A stretch of DNA of 64,000 nt from Escherichia coli (GTDB lineage: Bacteria; Pseudomonadota; Gammaproteobacteria; Enterobacterales; Enterobacteriaceae), in assembly GCF_001677475.2 (NCBI RefSeq), contig NZ_CP015229.1, one strand, 5' to 3'. Both the position numbers and the translations under genes were made by a program. The notes beneath the pieces are model-generated. The model did not search any database, had not been told where the DNA came from, and saw only the letters and a program-made list of their open reading frames with translations. Positions 2,192 through 47,212 of the stretch are shown in pieces (position 1 is the first letter of the stretch; every line of letters begins with the position of its first letter).

Positions 2192-3565
2192 GTGGATCAT
2201 TTGCCTATATTTTGCCAATTACGCGATCGCGACTGTCTGATTGTCGGCGGTGGTGATGTCGCGGAACGCAAAGCAAGGTTGCTGTTAGACGCGGGTGCTC
2301 GCTTAACGGTGAATGCATTAGCGTTTATTCCACAGTTCACCGCATGGGCAGATGCAGGCATGTTAACCCTCGTCGAAGGGCCATTTGATGAAAGCCTTCT
2401 CGACTCCTGCTGGCTGGCGATTGCTGCGACGGATGATGACGCGCTTAACCAGCGCGTCAGTGAAACCGCTGAAGCTCGTCGCATCTTCTGTAACGTGGTC
2501 GATGCGCCGAAAGCCGCCAGCTTTATTATGCCGTCAATTATTGACCGCTCACCGCTCATGGTAGCGGTCTCCTCTGGCGGCACCTCTCCGGTTCTGGCGC
2601 GCCTGTTGCGTGAAAAACTTGAATCACTGCTGCCGCTGCATCTGGGTCAGGTGGCGAAATATGCCGGGCAGTTACGTGGTCGGGTAAAACAGCAGTTCGC
2701 TACAATGGGTGAACGTCGCCGTTTCTGGGAAAAACTGTTCGTTAATGACCGCCTGGCGCAGTCGCTGGCAAACAACGATCAGAAAGCCATTACTGAAACG
2801 ACCGAACAGTTAATCAACGAACCGCTCGACCATCGCGGTGAAGTGGTGCTGGTTGGCGCAGGTCCGGGCGATGCCGGGCTGCTGACACTGAAGGGTCTGC
2901 AACAAATTCAGCAGGCAGATGTGGTGGTCTACGACCGTCTGGTTTCTGACGATATTATGAATCTGGTACGCCGCGATGCTGATCGCGTTTTCGTCGGCAA
3001 ACGCGCGGGATACCACTGCGTACCGCAGGAAGAGATTAACCAGATCCTGCTGCGGGAAGCGCAAAAAGGCAAACGCGTGGTGCGGCTGAAAGGCGGCGAT
3101 CCGTTTATTTTTGGCCGTGGTGGCGAAGAGCTGGAAACACTGTGCAACGCGGGTATTCCGTTCTCGGTGGTTCCGGGTATTACCGCAGCTTCTGGTTGCT
3201 CTGCCTATTCGGGTATTCCGCTCACGCATCGCGATTATGCTCAGAGCGTGCGCTTAATTACCGGACACTTAAAAACTGGTGGCGAGCTGGACTGGGAAAA
3301 CCTGGCGGCAGAAAAACAAACGCTGGTGTTCTATATGGGACTGAATCAGGCTGCGACTATTCAGCAAAAGCTGATTGAACACGGTATGCCTGGCGAAATG
3401 CCGGTGGCAATTGTCGAAAACGGAACAGCAGTCACGCAGCGCGTGATTGACGGTACGCTCACACAGCTGGGCGAACTGGCGCAGCAAATGAACAGTCCAT
3501 CGCTAATTATTATTGGTCGGGTTGTTGGCCTGCGCGATAAACTGAACTGGTTCTCCAACCATTAA
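2192..3565 (+). CDS. cysG: Siroheme synthase (uroporphyrinogen-III methyltransferase / precorrin-2 dehydrogenase / ferrochelatase)
   Basis: 457-aa ORF with GTG start ([10 protein letters not shown]...), Rossmann GGG motif near N-term; length matches CysG. Confidence 0.9.
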
Positions 3566-3574
3566 TTTAACCAG

Positions 3575-3597
3575 GGCCAGAGAATTCTGGCCTTTTT
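3575..3597 (+). terminator. Intrinsic terminator downstream of cysG
   Basis: ggccaga-gaat-tctggcc hairpin immediately followed by ttttt. Confidence 0.6.
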
Positions 3598-3819
3598 CGT
3601 TTACAACTCTCTTTATATATTCAGCAGATAAAAATATAACTCATTAACAAAAATCATTTGTTTTTGTCCCGTTATATTCACCGTTACAGCGAATTACAAA
3701 ATTAAGTCATTCGCTCACTGACGCCAATTAAATATTCCTGTATCGTTCTAAATGAGCAGTCTGCTTATATTCATATAATCAATGAATATTAATTAATATA
3801 TAATACATAGGGAATGTAA

Positions 3820-3987
3820 ATGAACAAATTTATTAAAGTTGCACTGGTAGGTGCAGTACTGGCTACGTTAACTGCATGTACTGGTCATATTGAAAACCGT
3901 GATAAGAACTGCTCTTACGACTACCTGCTGCACCCGGCAATTTCTATTTCTAAAATCATTGGCGGTTGCGGTCCTACTGCACAGTAA
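3820..3987 (+). CDS. yhfL: Small lipoprotein (55 aa)
   Basis: ATG at 3820, 55 codons, TAA at 3985-3987; signal peptide with lipobox LTAC (MNKFIKVALVGAVLATLTAC...); below the ORF-track length cut-off; preceded by AT-rich promoter-like region. Confidence 0.6.
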   Translation: MNKFIKVALVGAVLATLTACTGHIENRDKNCSYDYLLHPAISISKIIGGCGPTAQ

Positions 3988-4060: not shown

Positions 4061-4231
4061 TCTACGTCCTTCTTGCTCCCCGCCCGTAAAAATATTTTCA
4101 CTTTAATTTCAATTGGATAACTACATCCATTAGCCACAGCGCGATCCTGTGCGAAATTTTGTGATCTTCCTCCACATTACATAACATCATATGTTGTTAT
4201 ATTCATCATGCATTGTCATGTTACCTTTTAA

Positions 4232-5620
<1,389 letters not shown>

Positions 5621-5640
5621 TGTTATCTGGAGAAAATAAA

Positions 5641-6663
5641 ATGTTGGATATTGATAAAAGCACCGTGGACTTTCTGGTCACCGAAAATATGGTTCAGGAA
5701 GTGGAAAAAGTTCTCAGCCATGACGTTCCGCTGGTGCACACCATCGTGGAAGAGATGGTGAAGCGCAACATTGATCGTATTTATTTCGTTGCCTGCGGAT
5801 CGCCACTCAACGCGGCGCAAACGGCGAAACATCTGGCGGATCGCTTTTCCGATCTTCAGGTCTACGCCATTTCCGGCTGGGAGTTCTGCGATAACACCCC
5901 GTATCGCCTCGACGATCGTTGCGCAGTAATTGGCGTTTCTGACTACGGTAAAACAGAAGAGGTAATCAAAGCGCTGGAGCTGGGGCGGGCCTGCGGCGCG
6001 CTCACTGCGGCATTCACCAAACGCGCGGATAGCCCGATTACCTCGGCGGCGGAATTTAGCATTGATTATCAGGCCGACTGTATTTGGGAAATTCATCTGC
6101 TGCTCTGCTACAGCGTGGTGCTGGAGATGATCACCCGCCTCGCGCCGAACGCGGAAATCGGCAAGATCAAAAACGATCTCAAGCTGTTGCCGAATGCGCT
6201 CGGTCATCTGGTACGCACCTGGGAAGAAAAAGGCCGCCAGCTTGGTGAACTGGCCAGCCAGTGGCCGATGATTTATACCGTTGCTGCGGGTCCGCTGCGT
6301 CCGCTGGGTTACAAAGAAGGCATTGTAACGCTAATGGAATTTACCTGGACGCACGGCTGCGTGCTCGAAAGCGGAGAGTTCCGCCACGGCCCACTGGAAA
6401 TTGTCGAGCCGGGCATTCCGTTCCTATTCCTGCTCGGCAATGACGAAAGTCGCCACACCACCGAACGCGCCATTAACTTTGTAAAACAGCGTACTGACAA
6501 CGTGATCGTCATTGATTACGCCGAAATTTCGCAAGGGCTGCACCCGTGGCTGGCACCGTTCCTGATGTTCGTGCCAATGGAGTGGCTCTGCTACTACCTG
6601 TCTATTTACAAAGATCACAACCCGGATGAACGCCGCTATTACGGTGGTCTGGTGGAATATTAA
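5641..6663 (+). CDS. frlB: Fructoselysine-6-phosphate deglycase (SIS domains)
   Basis: Track ORF 5620-6663; start trimmed to MLDIDKST (340 aa). Confidence 0.85.
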
Positions 6664-6712
6664 TCCCTCTCCCGGCCCGGCAACGGGCCGGATTTACGCA
6701 AGGAGTTACCCG

Positions 6713-7543
6713 ATGAAAACAGGTATGTTTACCTGCGGCCACCAGCGGCTGCCTATTGAACACGCATTCCGTGATGCAAGCGAGCTGGGTTACGACGGCA
6801 TCGAAATTTGGGGCGGTCGCCCGCACGCGTTCGCGCCGGACTTAAAAGCGGGCGGCATCAAACAGATCAAGGCGCTGGCGCAGACGTATCAGATGCCGAT
6901 TATCGGTTATACGCCAGAAACCAACGGCTATCCGTATAACATGATGCTGGGCGATGAACATATGCGTCGCGAAAGCCTGGACATGATCAAGCTGGCGATG
7001 GATATGGCAAAAGAGATGAACGCCGGTTATACGCTGATTTCTGCGGCCCACGCGGGCTATCTCACGCCACCTAATGTTATCTGGGGACGGCTGGCAGAGA
7101 ACCTAAGCGAACTGTGTGAGTACGCGGAAAACATCGGCATGGATCTAATCCTCGAACCGTTAACACCGTATGAATCGAACGTCGTGTGTAATGCTAATGA
7201 TGTGCTTCATGCGCTGGCGCTGGTGCCTTCGCCGCGCCTGTTCAGCATGGTCGACATTTGCGCGCCGTATGTCCAGTCGGAACCGGTGATGAGTTATTTC
7301 GACAAACTGAGCGATAAATTGCGTCATTTGCATATTGTCGACAGCGACGGGGCCAGCGACACGCATTACATTCCCGGCGAAGGCAAGATGCCGCTGCGGG
7401 AGTTGATGCGCGATATTATTGATCGGGGCTACGACGGTTACTGCACGGTGGAACTGGTAACGATGTATATGAACGAACCCAGACTCTACGCTCGCCAGGC
7501 GCTGGAACGCTTTCGCGCGCTGCTGCCGGAGGATGCGAGATGA
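6713..7543 (+). CDS. frlC: Fructoselysine 3-epimerase (sugar-phosphate isomerase/epimerase TIM barrel)
   Basis: Track ORF 6626-7543; start trimmed to [11 protein letters not shown] (276 aa); SD-like aggag upstream. Confidence 0.85.
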
Positions 7544-8325
7544 AAAACCTGGCGACAATCGGCGATAACTGCGTCGATATCTACCCGCAACTGAATAAAG
7601 CGTTTTCTGGCGGTAATGCGGTGAACGTGGCGGTGTACTGCACTCGCTACGGCATACAACCCGGATGCATTACCTGGGTGGGTGACGATGACTACGGCAC
7701 AAAGCTGAAGCAGGATCTTGCCCGCATGGGCGTCGATATCAGCCATGTCCATACGAAACACGGCGTTACCGCACAAACTCAGGTGGAACTGCACGACAAC
7801 GATCGCGTTTTTGGCGACTACACCGAAGGCGTGATGGCCGACTTTGCCCTGAGCGAAGAGGATTACGCCTGGCTGGCGCAGTATGACATTGTGCACGCGG
7901 CAATCTGGGGACATGCGGAGGACGCATTCCCGCACCTGCACGCAGCGGGCAAACTTACCGCTTTCGACTTCTCCGACAAGTGGGACAGCCCGCTCTGGCA
8001 GACACTGGTGCCGCATCTCGATTTTGCCTTTGCCTCCGCGCCGCAAGAAGACGAAGCGTTACGTCTGAAGATGAAGGCGATTGTTGCCCGTGGCGCAGGC
8101 GTGGTGATTGTCACGCTGGGCGAAAACAGCAGCATTGCCTGGGATGGCGCGCAGTTCTGGCGTCAGGCTCCTGAACCGGTGACGGTTATCGACACCATGG
8201 GTGCCGGAGATTCGTTCATTGCCGGATTCCTTTGCGGCTGGTCTGCGGGGATGACATTACCGCAGGCGATGGCGCAGGGAACGGCGTGCGCGGCACAAAC
8301 TATTCAGTACCACGGTGCCTGGTAG
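7540..8325 (+). CDS. frlD: Fructoselysine 6-kinase (PfkB/ribokinase family)
   Basis: 261-aa ORF, ATG overlaps frlC stop (ATGA); GAGD motif near C-terminus typical of PfkB kinases. Confidence 0.85.
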
Positions 8326-8424
8326 GCATAACGTTGGCGTGAGCATCTTCACGCCAACGTGCTGTTACTTGCCGGAAAACGACCCTATAATCCGTGTAAT
8401 TCATTCTTTATTTCAGGGTCGATT

Positions 8425-9156
8425 ATGTCAGCTACGGACCGCTACTCTCATCAACTCCTCTACGCTACCGTCCGCCAGCGGCTGCTGGATGATATCGCGC
8501 AGGGGGTTTACCAGGCCGGGCAACAGATCCCTACCGAAAACGAGCTTTGTACGCAATATAACGTCAGCCGCATTACCATTCGCAAAGCCATCAGCGACTT
8601 AGTGGCAGACGGCGTACTGATCCGCTGGCAGGGCAAAGGCACCTTTGTACAAAGCCAGAAAGTTGAAAACGCCCTGCTTACTGTCAGTGGTTTTACCGAT
8701 TTTGGCGTCTCACAAGGCAAGGCGACGAAAGAGAAAGTGATCGAGCAGGAACGGGTCAGCGCCGCGCCGTTTTGCGAAAAGCTGAACATCCCCGGAAACA
8801 GCGAAGTGTTCCATCTCTGCCGGGTGATGTATCTCGATAAAGAGCCGCTGTTTATTGATAGTTCATGGATCCCGCTGTCGCGTTATCCTGACTTTGATGA
8901 GATTTACGCCGAAGGAAGCTCCACCTATCAGTTATTTCAGGAGCGTTTTGACACGCGAGTGGTCAGCGATAAAAAGACCATCGATATTTTTGCCGCCACC
9001 CGCCCGCAGGCAAAATGGCTGAAATGCGAACTGGGCGAACCGCTGTTTCGCATCAGCAAAATCGCCTTTGATCAGAATGACAAACCGGTGCACGTCTCCG
9101 AACTCTTCTGCCGCGCCAATCGCATCACCTTAACGATTGATAATAAAAGACATTAA
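8425..9156 (+). CDS. frlR: GntR-family transcriptional regulator of the frl operon
   Basis: Track ORF 8359-9156; start trimmed to MSATDRYSHQ (243 aa); N-terminal HTH with UTRA-like C-terminal domain. Confidence 0.85.
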   Translation: MSATDRYSHQLLYATVRQRLLDDIAQGVYQAGQQIPTENELCTQYNVSRITIRKAISDLVADGVLIRWQGKGTFVQSQKVENALLTVSGFTDFGVSQGKATKEKVIEQERVSAAPFCEKLNIPGNSEVFHLCRVMYLDKEPLFIDSSWIPLSRYPDFDEIYAEGSSTYQLFQERFDTRVVSDKKTIDIFAATRPQAKWLKCELGEPLFRISKIAFDQNDKPVHVSELFCRANRITLTIDNKRH

Positions 9157-9161
9157 CCGTA

Positions 9162-9206
9162 GGCCGGATAAGATGCGCCAGCATCGCATCCGGCGATGCT
9201 GGCGCG
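9162..9206. repeat. REP (repetitive extragenic palindromic) element between convergent frlR and yhfS
   Basis: ggccggataagatgcgccagcatcgcatccggcg palindromic unit characteristic of E. coli REP sequences. Confidence 0.6.
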
Positions 9207-9263
9207 TTGAGGGGACCGTCCGGCGCTGAATTTAGCTTGATTGCCGAACGGGGCTATCCAGCA

Positions 9264-40849: not shown

Positions 40850-41076
40850 TGTTTGTACTCCCAAAGGTTCGCAACAATTTGTAAGCGTGTATTCTTAAAA
40901 AAGCTCACGTTCGTCACCAGCTAAATCTGGTATGAATTTCAGCCTAAATTGTTACAAAGCATATTAAACAGCAGCTTAAGTATACAATTTATTCGGCGAA
41001 ACATTATTGATTCTGTTGATATGATCACGTTATACCCAATGTGCGCATTATCAAACAGACAAAGGGAATCAACGAG

Positions 41077-43971: not shown

Positions 43972-43997
43972 ACGCCCTGATAGACAAACGTAAACCT

Positions 43998-44027
43998 GCC
44001 AGATAAGGCGTTCACGCCGCATCTGGC
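43998..44027. repeat. REP-like palindromic unit downstream of tex
   Basis: gccagataaggcgttcacgccgcatctggc. Confidence 0.5.
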
Positions 44028-44054
44028 AACGAACGCCTTGCCTGACATAAAAGT

Positions 44055-44079
44055 GCCGGAGAATATCTCCGGCCTTTTT
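44055..44079 (+). terminator. Intrinsic terminator downstream of tex
   Basis: gccggaga-ata-tctccggc stem-loop followed by ttttt. Confidence 0.7.
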
Positions 44080-44207
44080 ATTCCACAACCAAACTCTCAA
44101 TATATCCCGTTAATATTTATCACTTCATTAACAACTGAAACCTTAATTAAACATTAACCAGTCCTGGTAATTCGCTATTCGAATTATATTTTCGCTGCGA
44201 TATAACC

Positions 44208-44221
44208 TTGAGCCACATCAA
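44208..44221 (+). promoter_or_regulatory. Candidate FNR binding site in feoA promoter
   Basis: TTGAG-ccac-ATCAA matches the FNR consensus TTGAT-N4-ATCAA at 9/10 positions, about 190 bp upstream of feoA. Confidence 0.5.
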
Positions 44222-44275
44222 TATTGAGTCAGATTATTATTCAAACCAACATTCGCACACATTTTAAGTATTGCT

Positions 44276-44301
44276 GATAGAAACCATTCTCATTATCATT
44301 G
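44276..44301 (+). promoter_or_regulatory. Candidate Fur box in feoA promoter
   Basis: gatagaaaccattctcattatcattg resembles the GATAATGATAATCATTATC Fur consensus. Confidence 0.5.
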
Positions 44302-44410
44302 TGTTGTTGATTATTTAATCTCTCCTTCGTTGGCAAATCATCTGGTCTCATGTCGCTGTCAAACGCCCCATGAGGTAGTTATCCAGTTAATGAGAAACAA
44401 GTAGGCACCT

Positions 44411-44638
44411 ATGCAATACACTCCAGATACTGCGTGGAAAATCACTGGCTTTTCCCGTGAAATCAGCCCGGCATATCGCCAAAAACTGCTTTCTCTAGGC
44501 ATGTTACCTGGCTCCTCTTTTAATGTGGTGCGCGTCGCTCCACTCGGCGACCCCATTCATATCGAAACCCGTCGTGTGAGCCTGGTATTACGCAAAAAAG
44601 ATCTGGCCTTATTAGAAGTGGAAGCGGTTTCCTGTTAA
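44411..44638 (+). CDS. feoA: Ferrous iron transport protein A
   Basis: 75-aa ORF; recognised FeoA. Confidence 0.9.
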
Positions 44639-44654
44639 TACGGTGATAACAACA

Positions 44655-46976
44655 ATGAAAAAATTAACCATTGGCTTAATTGGTAATCCAAATTCTGGCA
44701 AGACAACCTTATTTAACCAGCTCACTGGTGCACGTCAGCGTGTAGGTAACTGGGCTGGTGTTACCGTCGAACGTAAAGAAGGGCAATTCTCCACCACCGA
44801 TCATCAGGTCACGCTGGTGGACCTGCCCGGCACCTATTCTCTGACCACCATCTCATCGCAGACCTCGCTCGATGAGCAAATCGCCTGTCACTATATTCTG
44901 AGTGGCGACGCCGACCTGCTGATTAACGTGGTGGATGCGTCTAACCTTGAGCGTAACCTGTACCTGACGCTGCAACTGCTGGAACTCGGCATTCCCTGCA
45001 TCGTGGCACTGAACATGCTCGACATTGCCGAGAAGCAAAATATTCGTATTGAAATTGATGCTCTGTCGGCGCGTCTTGGCTGCCCGGTGATCCCGCTGGT
45101 TTCAACCCGTGGTCGCGGTATTGAAGCGCTCAAGCTGGCGATTGATCGCTATAAAGCTAACGAGAATGTGGAACTGGTGCATTACGCACAGCCGCTACTC
45201 AACGAAGCAGATTCACTGGCAAAAGTGATGCCTTCCGACATCCCGCTGAAACAACGTCGCTGGCTGGGCCTGCAAATGCTGGAAGGCGATATCTACAGCC
45301 GCGCCTACGCCGGTGAAGCGTCGCAGCATCTGGATGCCGCCCTCGCCCGTCTGCGTAATGAGATGGACGATCCGGCGCTGCACATTGCCGATGCGCGTTA
45401 CCAGTGCATTGCTGCCATCTGTGATGTGGTAAGCAACACCCTGACGGCAGAACCCAGCCGTTTCACCACTGCGGTAGATAAAATCGTGCTCAACCGTTTC
45501 CTCGGTCTGCCGATTTTCCTCTTTGTGATGTACCTGATGTTCCTGCTGGCTATCAACATCGGCGGGGCGTTACAGCCGCTGTTTGATGTCGGTTCCGTGG
45601 CGCTGTTTGTGCATGGTATTCAGTGGATTGGCTACACGCTCCACTTCCCGGACTGGCTGACTATCTTCCTCGCCCAGGGCCTGGGCGGCGGTATTAACAC
45701 CGTGCTGCCACTGGTGCCGCAGATCGGCATGATGTACCTGTTCCTCTCCTTCCTTGAGGACTCCGGCTATATGGCGCGTGCGGCGTTTGTGATGGACCGT
45801 CTGATGCAGGCGCTGGGCTTGCCGGGGAAATCCTTTGTACCGCTGATCGTTGGTTTCGGTTGTAACGTACCGTCGGTAATGGGCGCACGTACGCTTGATG
45901 CACCGCGTGAACGTCTGATGACCATCATGATGGCACCGTTTATGTCCTGCGGCGCGCGTCTGGCTATCTTCGCAGTATTTGCGGCTGCCTTCTTCGGGCA
46001 GAACGGTGCGCTGGCGGTCTTCTCGCTGTATATGCTCGGTATTGTGATGGCGGTGCTGACTGGCCTGATGCTCAAGTACACCATCATGCGCGGTGAAGCG
46101 ACGCCGTTTGTCATGGAGCTGCCGGTCTACCATGTACCACACGTTAAAAGCCTGATTATCCAGACCTGGCAGCGTCTGAAAGGCTTCGTTCTGCGTGCTG
46201 GTAAAGTGATTATCATCGTCAGCATTTTCCTGAGTGCTTTCAACAGCTTCTCTCTGAGCGGGAAAATCGTCGATAACATCAACGACTCGGCGCTGGCTTC
46301 CGTCAGCCGGGTGATCACCCCAGTCTTCAAGCCGATTGGCGTGCATGAAGATAACTGGCAGGCAACGGTTGGCCTGTTTACAGGCGCAATGGCGAAAGAA
46401 GTGGTGGTGGGTACGCTCAACACCCTCTACACCGCAGAAAATATTCAGGACGAAGAGTTCAATCCGGCGGAATTTAACCTCGGTGAAGAGCTGTTCAGTG
46501 CGGTAGATGAAACCTGGCAGAGCCTGAAAGACACCTTCAGCCTTAGCGTACTGATGAACCCGATTGAAGCGAGCAAAGGCGACGGCGAAATGGGTACCGG
46601 GGCGATGGGCGTGATGGATCAGAAATTCGGTAGCGCAGCTGCCGCATACAGCTACCTGATTTTCGTCCTGCTGTATGTACCGTGCATCTCGGTGATGGGT
46701 GCTATCGCCCGTGAATCAAGCCGTGGCTGGATGGGCTTCTCCATCCTGTGGGGGCTGAATATCGCTTACTCGCTGGCAACATTGTTCTATCAGGTCGCCA
46801 GCTACAGCCAGCATCCAACTTACAGCCTGGTGTGCATTCTGGCGGTTATCCTGTTTAACATCGTGGTTATCGGTTTGCTGCGTCGCGCGCGTAGCCGGGT
46901 GGATATCGAACTGCTGGCAACGCGCAAATCGGTAAGCAGTTGCTGCGCAGCCAGCACCACCGGTGATTGCCATTAA
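44655..46976 (+). CDS. feoB: Ferrous iron transporter B (N-terminal GTPase plus membrane permease)
   Basis: Track ORF 44643-46976; start trimmed to [21 protein letters not shown] (773 aa); G1 motif GNPNSGKTT. Confidence 0.9.
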
Positions 46977-47212
46977 TGGCTTCACTTATTCAGGTGCGCG
47001 ATTTGCTGGCGTTACGGGGCCGTATGGAAGCGGCCCAGATAAGCCAGACATTGAACACTCCGCAGCCAATGATTAACGCCATGCTGCAACAGCTGGAAAG
47101 CATGGGCAAAGCCGTGCGGATTCAGGAAGAACCTGACGGCTGCCTCTCTGGCAGTTGTAAAAGCTGTCCGGAAGGCAAAGTCTGTCTGCGCGAGTGGTGG
47201 GCGCTGCGTTAA
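46976..47212 (+). CDS. feoC: Ferrous iron transport protein C (winged-helix with Cys cluster)
   Basis: ATG at 46976 overlaps feoB TAA by 1 nt; 78 aa; CxxGxCKxCPxxxxC motif. Confidence 0.8.

Follow-up and report, generated by a model that had tools for sequence, protein, structure and literature searches.

The region at positions 44080-44410 of the window, by which we mean the whole 64,000-nucleotide stretch of Escherichia coli DNA that was analysed, is with a probability of roughly 0.93 the native promoter-operator region of feoABC in a non-K-12 E. coli strain, activated by FNR and ArcA and repressed by Fur. This is an already described E. coli system and nothing about it is new here. An earlier note had recognised in this region an FNR site and a Fur-box-like tract, and had offered them as a sanity check that the regulatory architecture is intact, which in the source strain it appears to be. 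The value of the result is that of a control in which two real transcription-factor sites were placed to the base from sequence alone. The present analysis contributes sequence matches, scores and conservation, and it is the literature that shows, for identical sequence, that FNR, Fur and ArcA occupy these sites in vivo and influence expression, the ArcA motif carrying one T>C change at 44124.

The identity of the locus is clear from its genes. The source strain is E. coli and not K-12, and the 501 bases around the feature match 5,425 of 5,426 complete E. coli genomes, with about 22 of the 5,425 matching records covering less than 80% of the control region. The annotated genes under this match are yhgF (Tex family) and feoA in the RefSeq annotation of the matching genomes. 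Directly downstream of the region and in order on the plus strand lie open reading frames for FeoA (44411-44638; NCBIfam equivalog NF007106, 161 bits against a cut-off of 102; also feoA in the RefSeq annotation of matching genomes), FeoB (44655-46976; NF007105, 1642.8 bits against 683) and FeoC (46976-47212; NF011960, 173.9 bits against 111), all of which exceed their equivalog cut-offs. The control region is bounded on its 5' side by the terminator hairpin of yhgF (tex), GCCGGAGAATATCTCCGGC, which a terminator scan places at 44055-44073 with T-runs on both strands, and on its 3' side by the feoA ATG at 44411. The description of this stretch as an AT-rich control region upstream of feoA holds, as it has 35% G+C compared to about 53% for the 64-kb window and ends at the feoA ATG. 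A REP-type palindrome lies directly 5' of the yhgF terminator at approximately 43997-44050, and the Rfam family naRNA4, which is REP-derived, matches 43997-44074 on both strands with 38 bits, below its gathering score of 59.5.

The window is identical to K-12 over 44223-44328 and published scores within this interval therefore transfer directly. For the conversion of coordinates, the offset between the two MG1655 versions at the feo locus is 1978, a value that was verified on the FNR site.

The FNR binding site, TTGAGCCACATCAA, occupies 44208-44221 and reads as stated in the earlier note, matching TTGAT-N4-ATCAA at nine of ten positions with both the TTGA and the TCAA core intact. The G at position 5 is also present in 7 of 62 other ChIP-bound FNR sites. 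Because five one-mismatch matches to the consensus occur in the 64-kb window where 2.2 are expected, a difference that is not significant, the consensus count alone is weak evidence. We therefore draw on a matrix of our own, constructed from the 62 other FNR sites located under ChIP-seq peaks (Myers 2013) with the feoA site left out. Using this matrix, the feoA site scores 15.7-15.9 bits, the highest value in the 64-kb window, with the next best match at 12.3 bits; among bound sites it ranks mid-range (35th of 63), and its score is reached in 17 of 2000 dinucleotide shuffles of 44080-44410. The nirB FNR site, which was intended as a positive control within the window, is absent from the 64 kb because the window begins inside nirB. 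In line with these scores, Table S6 of Myers 2013 lists the identical 14-mer for K-12 feoA at 3537982, marks it as 'at ChIP-seq peak' and assigns it a PatSer score of 14.6 (ln p -13.13, cut-off -10.75), which places it at about rank 22 of 63 bound sites. The K-12 site and the window site are equally far from the feoA ATG, and the K-12 FNR ChIP-seq peak at 3537996 corresponds to window position ~44222 (Myers 2013). The same study classifies feoABC as bound and activated by FNR but masked by Fur in iron-replete medium. At 44222, immediately 3' of the FNR site, the window has T where K-12, CFT073, O157:H7, four other E. coli strains, E. albertii, E. whittamii and Escherichia sp. MOD1 have C.

The Fur operator consists of overlapping Fur sites at 44273-44306, and this assignment draws on ChIP-exo, ChIP-seq, the scores of Chen 2007, our own matrix with shuffles, and conservation. 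It contains the tract at 44276-44301, reading GATAGAAACCATTCTCATTATCATTG, that had been called Fur-box-like, and this tract lies inside the K-12 ChIP-exo footprint and under the CFT073 ChIP-seq summit. The best 19-mer match to GATAATGATAATCATTATC is 13 of 19 positions at 44285-44303 on the minus strand, and three tandem ATTATC-type hexamers at 44286-44303, ATTCTC, ATTATC and ATTGTG, match the reverse of the GATAAT hexamer at five, six and four of six positions, respectively. Several ChIP-exo peaks in Gao 2023 lie off the expected boxes or are mislabelled by one row (ryhB, yncE). Because of these displaced and mislabelled peaks, we trained our Fur matrix on the best intergenic sites of 13 classical K-12 Fur promoter regions, chosen by similarity to the consensus, so that it comprises only 13 sites. 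This matrix gives 13.9 bits at 44279-44297, a value that ranks second in the 64 kb and falls inside the span of 3.8-16.7 obtained for the training sites by leave-one-out scoring, and overlapping sites at -6 and +6 bp score 8.9 and 6.7 bits. Since the DNA is AT-rich, 110 of 5000 shuffles (2.2%) score at least as high as the single site; for the sum of the three sites, 3 of 2000 do.

Published evidence points to the same positions. Chen 2007 reports sites of 10.9 and 13.4 bits centred at 3538059 and 3538065, which are window positions 44285 and 44291, 6 bp apart, and the K-12 ChIP-exo footprint P104 at 3538047-3538080, which is 44273-44306 in the window, is found only in iron-replete cells (Seo 2014, as cited in Gao 2023). 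In CFT073, the Fur ChIP-seq signal peaks 116 bp ahead of the ATG (window position ~44295). Functionally, the Banerjee 2020 tables for the fur mutant show feoABC de-repressed approximately 10-fold, and Beauchene 2015 observed Fur repression of feoA only under anaerobic conditions, which was attributed to the need for ArcA and FNR for promoter activity. The check by position weight matrix that had been proposed for both sites thus gives scores above threshold (PatSer 14.6 for FNR; 10.9 and 13.4 bits, and 13.9 by our own matrix, for Fur), and the published FNR and Fur sites coincide with the positions noted earlier rather than lying elsewhere in the region.

A further Fur box is predicted at 44223-44241, immediately adjacent to the FNR site and spanning about -82 to -64. 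According to Chen 2007, two Fur boxes had been marked by Kammler 1993, and Chen 2007 scores the upstream one at 10.5 bits with its centre at 3538006, corresponding to 44232. Our own matrix gives it only 6.7 bits, at 44220-44238, and the K-12 ChIP-exo listing contains no separate footprint for it; across 77 Enterobacteriaceae sequences its GATTAT is partly conserved. Should this box be genuine, it could give Fur a means of hindering FNR binding as well.

Elsewhere in the window, the top Fur-matrix score is 14.2 bits for GATAATAAAAGACATTAAC at 9139-9157, adjoining yhfS and located at the edge of a segment of about 5.2 kb (4064-9262) that strain 19KM1831, whose genome is otherwise the closest, lacks. 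Weaker matches occur at 3630-3661 and 4116-4134 in the cysG-yhfL area. The K-12 Fur ChIP-exo peak P103 (3534739-3534772), which is seen in iron-replete and iron-starved cells alike, would map to approximately 40965-40998 in the ompR-greB spacer if the two genomes are collinear here.

The core sigma-70 promoter of feoA was read by hand on the plus strand at 44271-44299, with a -35 element TTGCTG at 44271-44276, a 17-bp spacer and a -10 element TATCAT at 44294-44299. A strict sigma-70 consensus scan found no feoA promoter because TTGCTG matches only three of six positions, and we retained the hand-read elements on the grounds of their agreement with the published start and their conservation: TATCAT stands at the -10 position in 57 of 79 species and the TTG of the -35 element is kept in nearly all. 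For the start itself we rely on Park 2013, since no feoA entry was found in the available portion of the transcription start site tables of Kim 2012. In Table S6 of Park 2013, the ArcA site at 3537888-3537908 is placed at -191 to -171, which yields a start at 3538079, or window position 44305; we infer from these offsets in one supplementary table that transcription begins at about 44305, plus or minus 1.

Relative to this start, the Fur array extends from about -32 to +2 and 44273-44306 would span the proposed -35 and -10 elements together with the start (~44305), a geometry that suggests repression by promoter occlusion. The centre of the FNR site falls at about -90.5, a distal position whose value depends on the indirectly derived start. 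FNR activates either from class II positions near -41.5 or from class I positions on the same helical face further upstream. Synthetic-promoter work includes an FNR position at -92.5, and the feoA centre is 2 bp off this value. Together, the geometry and the conserved spacing described below point to class-I-type activation, in which distal FNR on a fixed helical face would act through the alpha C-terminal domain of RNA polymerase.

Further upstream lies a direct-repeat ArcA site, mapped by K-12 alignment from the supplementary tables of Park 2013 to 44114-44134 on the minus strand (-191 to -171). In K-12, this site (TTGTTAATGAAATGATAAATA, 3537888-3537908) scores 17.6 bits under an ArcA ChIP peak, and feoABC expression is 3.7-fold lower without ArcA (Park 2013). 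The ArcA site overlaps the OmpR motif TTATCAnnnnnTTAACA at 44117-44133, and purified OmpR shifts a fragment containing this motif in vitro (EMSA, Gerken 2020). The T>C change at 44124 is the one difference from K-12 in the combined motif, which forms a conserved island across genera in the 77 Enterobacteriaceae sequences. Gerken 2020 also proposed an RstA/OmpR-like box, CCAACAttcgCACACA, at -165 to -150 from the ATG, which is predicted to lie at 44246-44261 on the plus strand, or about -59 to -44 from the start; unphosphorylated OmpR failed to shift a short fragment on which this was the sole motif. The block at 44250-44267 is conserved across genera. The earlier note's view that the region is under anaerobic and iron control is supported by published FNR, ArcA and Fur data, and its layout was incomplete rather than wrong, in that it lacked the second predicted Fur box, the ArcA/OmpR site, the RstA/OmpR-like box and the distal FNR position at about -90.5.

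Phylogenetic footprinting across the feoA loci of 80 Enterobacteriaceae species shows that both the FNR and the Fur site are retained in 78 of them. In 78 of the 80, the top FNR-matrix match upstream of feoA has the form TTG(A/C)n-N4-nTCAA, and the half-sites are invariant while spacer and flanks vary, the spacer bases freely so (CCAC, CCAT, GCAT, GAAT, AAAT, TCAT, CAAG, CTAT and others). Among 77 Enterobacteriaceae sequences, the Fur core ATTCTCATTATC, the TTG of the -35 element and TATCAT are almost invariant, and 44158-44205 is not conserved. The distance between the sites is likewise held constant, with the FNR site starting 77-78 bp before the Fur core ATTCTCATTA in 78 of 79 species, including those of Enterobacter, Lelliottia and Leclercia, in which the leader is approximately 65 nt shorter. 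In the single exception, the FNR site lies 68 bp before the core, one helical turn less. This constant spacing with one 10-bp variant supports a constraint on helical face. An apparent second spacing class of 83-84 bp was rejected as an artefact of the pattern matching the next hexamer.

Cedecea davisae and C. neteri retain the Fur core and promoter without an FNR-like motif 77-78 bp before that core. Both carry a perfect TTGATnTAAATCAA about 240 bp further upstream, 376-387 bp before feoA.

Within Escherichia, an alignment of 11 sequences gives the same picture at closer range, as 57 of 128 positions vary in 44080-44207 compared to 14 of 203 in 44208-44410. The FNR half-sites show no variation in this sample and the sole change inside the FNR site falls in its spacer. 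The pig isolate E. coli PEC301 carries the IS30-family element ISApl1 at 2695-3903 of its locus, equivalent to window position ~44273/44274. The element lies downstream of the FNR site and upstream of the -35/Fur box, and it splits the activator sites from the promoter.

With the start at ~44305, the feoA leader (44305-44410, plus strand) would be about 106 nt long. It contains a Shine-Dalgarno-like AAGTAGG at 44399-44405 that is nearly invariant across species. A structured or riboswitch-like leader was considered and rejected: no Rfam family reaches threshold in the leader, its predicted fold is no better than that of shuffled sequences (z-score 0.15 in E. coli; mean -0.02 over 29 species), and RNAalifold returns no consensus pairs. 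Two conserved blocks, TTCGTTGGC at 44326-44334 and CAGTTA(A/G)(T/C)GA at 44384-44394, can pair around a central hairpin whose sequence varies by genus (CTCATG...CATGAG in E. coli), a pairing without statistical support, and this segment of about 65 nt is missing altogether in the Enterobacter/Lelliottia/Leclercia clade. The leader also contains a seven-codon open reading frame at 44350-44373 (ATG TCG CTG TCA AAC GCC CCA TGA) with no obvious ribosome-binding site; it is probably a chance occurrence, and its ATG is not kept in Salmonella.

Taken together, these elements are consistent with the accepted model, in which feoABC is transcribed from a weak sigma-70 promoter with the -35 sequence TTGCTG, a 17-bp spacer, the -10 sequence TATCAT and a start near 44305. 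When oxygen is absent, a [4Fe-4S]-FNR dimer bound to TTGAGCCACATCAA at about -90.5 would activate this promoter, as would phosphorylated ArcA on the direct repeats at 44114-44134, and OmpR or RstA may contribute. Fe2+-Fur on the overlapping sites at -32 to +2 would exclude RNA polymerase and override the activators. Overall, the cell would produce its ferrous-iron uptake system mainly under anaerobic, iron-limited conditions.

We considered three other readings of the region. In the first, the distal phased FNR site, the OmpR/RstA-type box at 44246-44261 and the weak Fur box at 44223-44241 would belong together, such that activation might need a stereospecific multi-protein arrangement. We regard this as an improbable, if tentatively tenable, elaboration; if true, a stereospecific array of FNR and a response regulator with which Fur interferes at two places would be a refinement of the known system and no new kind of element.

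A second reading, which we consider very unlikely, borrows its layout from Yersinia pestis, for which an upstream promoter P1 spanning the FNR-like motif and a downstream Fur-repressible promoter P2 have been proposed. Applied to the window, FNR would act as a class II activator of an upstream start of its own near 44256, and Fur would control only the downstream promoter or block elongation. An FNR site at -41.5 would put the Fur array at roughly +17 to +50 of such a start, a place from which it could act as a roadblock, and the conserved block at 44250-44267 is not fully explained. The sequence offers no -10-like hexamer where the upstream promoter needs one, however, as 44244-44249 reads AAACCA and is poorly conserved. 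The distance from FNR to the downstream -10 is fixed across genera (77-78 bp, with the exception off by 10 bp), which speaks for a coupling of FNR to the downstream promoter. Moreover, Park 2013 uses one start site, and the authors of the Y. pestis study could detect no similarity between its promoter region and that of E. coli.

Finally, that one or both motifs are chance matches, with the tract being merely the -35/-10 of the promoter, draws on the 35% G+C of the region, the five one-mismatch FNR matches against 2.2 expected, the 13 of 19 positions matched by the Fur 19-mer and the 2% of shuffles that reach its matrix score, but it is contradicted by published in vivo occupancy at the same positions of identical sequence, by regulator-dependent expression in the literature, and by half-sites that stay invariant amid variable spacer and flanks over 78 of 80 species and an FNR matrix score that is the best in 64 kb, and we therefore dismiss it as exceedingly improbable. 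The reading of 44080-44410 as a single FNR- and ArcA-activated, Fur-repressed promoter region remains the one that we prefer.

This promoter region corresponds to feoAp of K-12, which lies at the same yhgF-feoA locus (described by Kammler 1993, as cited in Chen 2007, and mapped across the genome for FNR by Myers 2013, for ArcA by Park 2013 and for Fur by Seo 2014, as cited in Gao 2023, and by the information model of Chen 2007). The FNR 14-mer, the Fur operator, the -35 and -10 elements and most of the leader are identical between the two, and the distances of the sites to the ATG are equal. The yhgF-feoA spacer as a whole is 96% identical to that of MG1655, from which the window differs by being 17 bp shorter just after yhgF (43978-44003), by several substitutions in 44080-44207 that include the T>C at 44124, and by a T instead of C at 44222. 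In Salmonella, of which two S. enterica subspecies were sampled, an FNR-like site, TTGAGCCATATCAA, is separated from the same Fur core by an equal distance and differs from that of the window in a spacer base. The literature describes FNR and ArcA as activators of feoABC in Shigella and RstA as an activator in Salmonella, the one organism in which an RstA box has been demonstrated experimentally. The feoABC promoter of Y. pestis also has a Fur site and upstream FNR- and ArcA-like motifs, but it differs in having, according to the authors of that study, no detectable DNA similarity to the E. coli promoter region, in that fnr and arcA mutations were without effect, in the two promoters proposed for it and in its lack of aerobic Fur repression. 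Overall, the integration of oxygen signals (FNR, ArcA) and an iron signal (Fur) in the control of Fe2+ uptake is textbook knowledge for the feo region in E. coli, Shigella and Salmonella, and to this known system the family-wide footprint adds the small detail of fixed half-sites, a free spacer and constant spacing.
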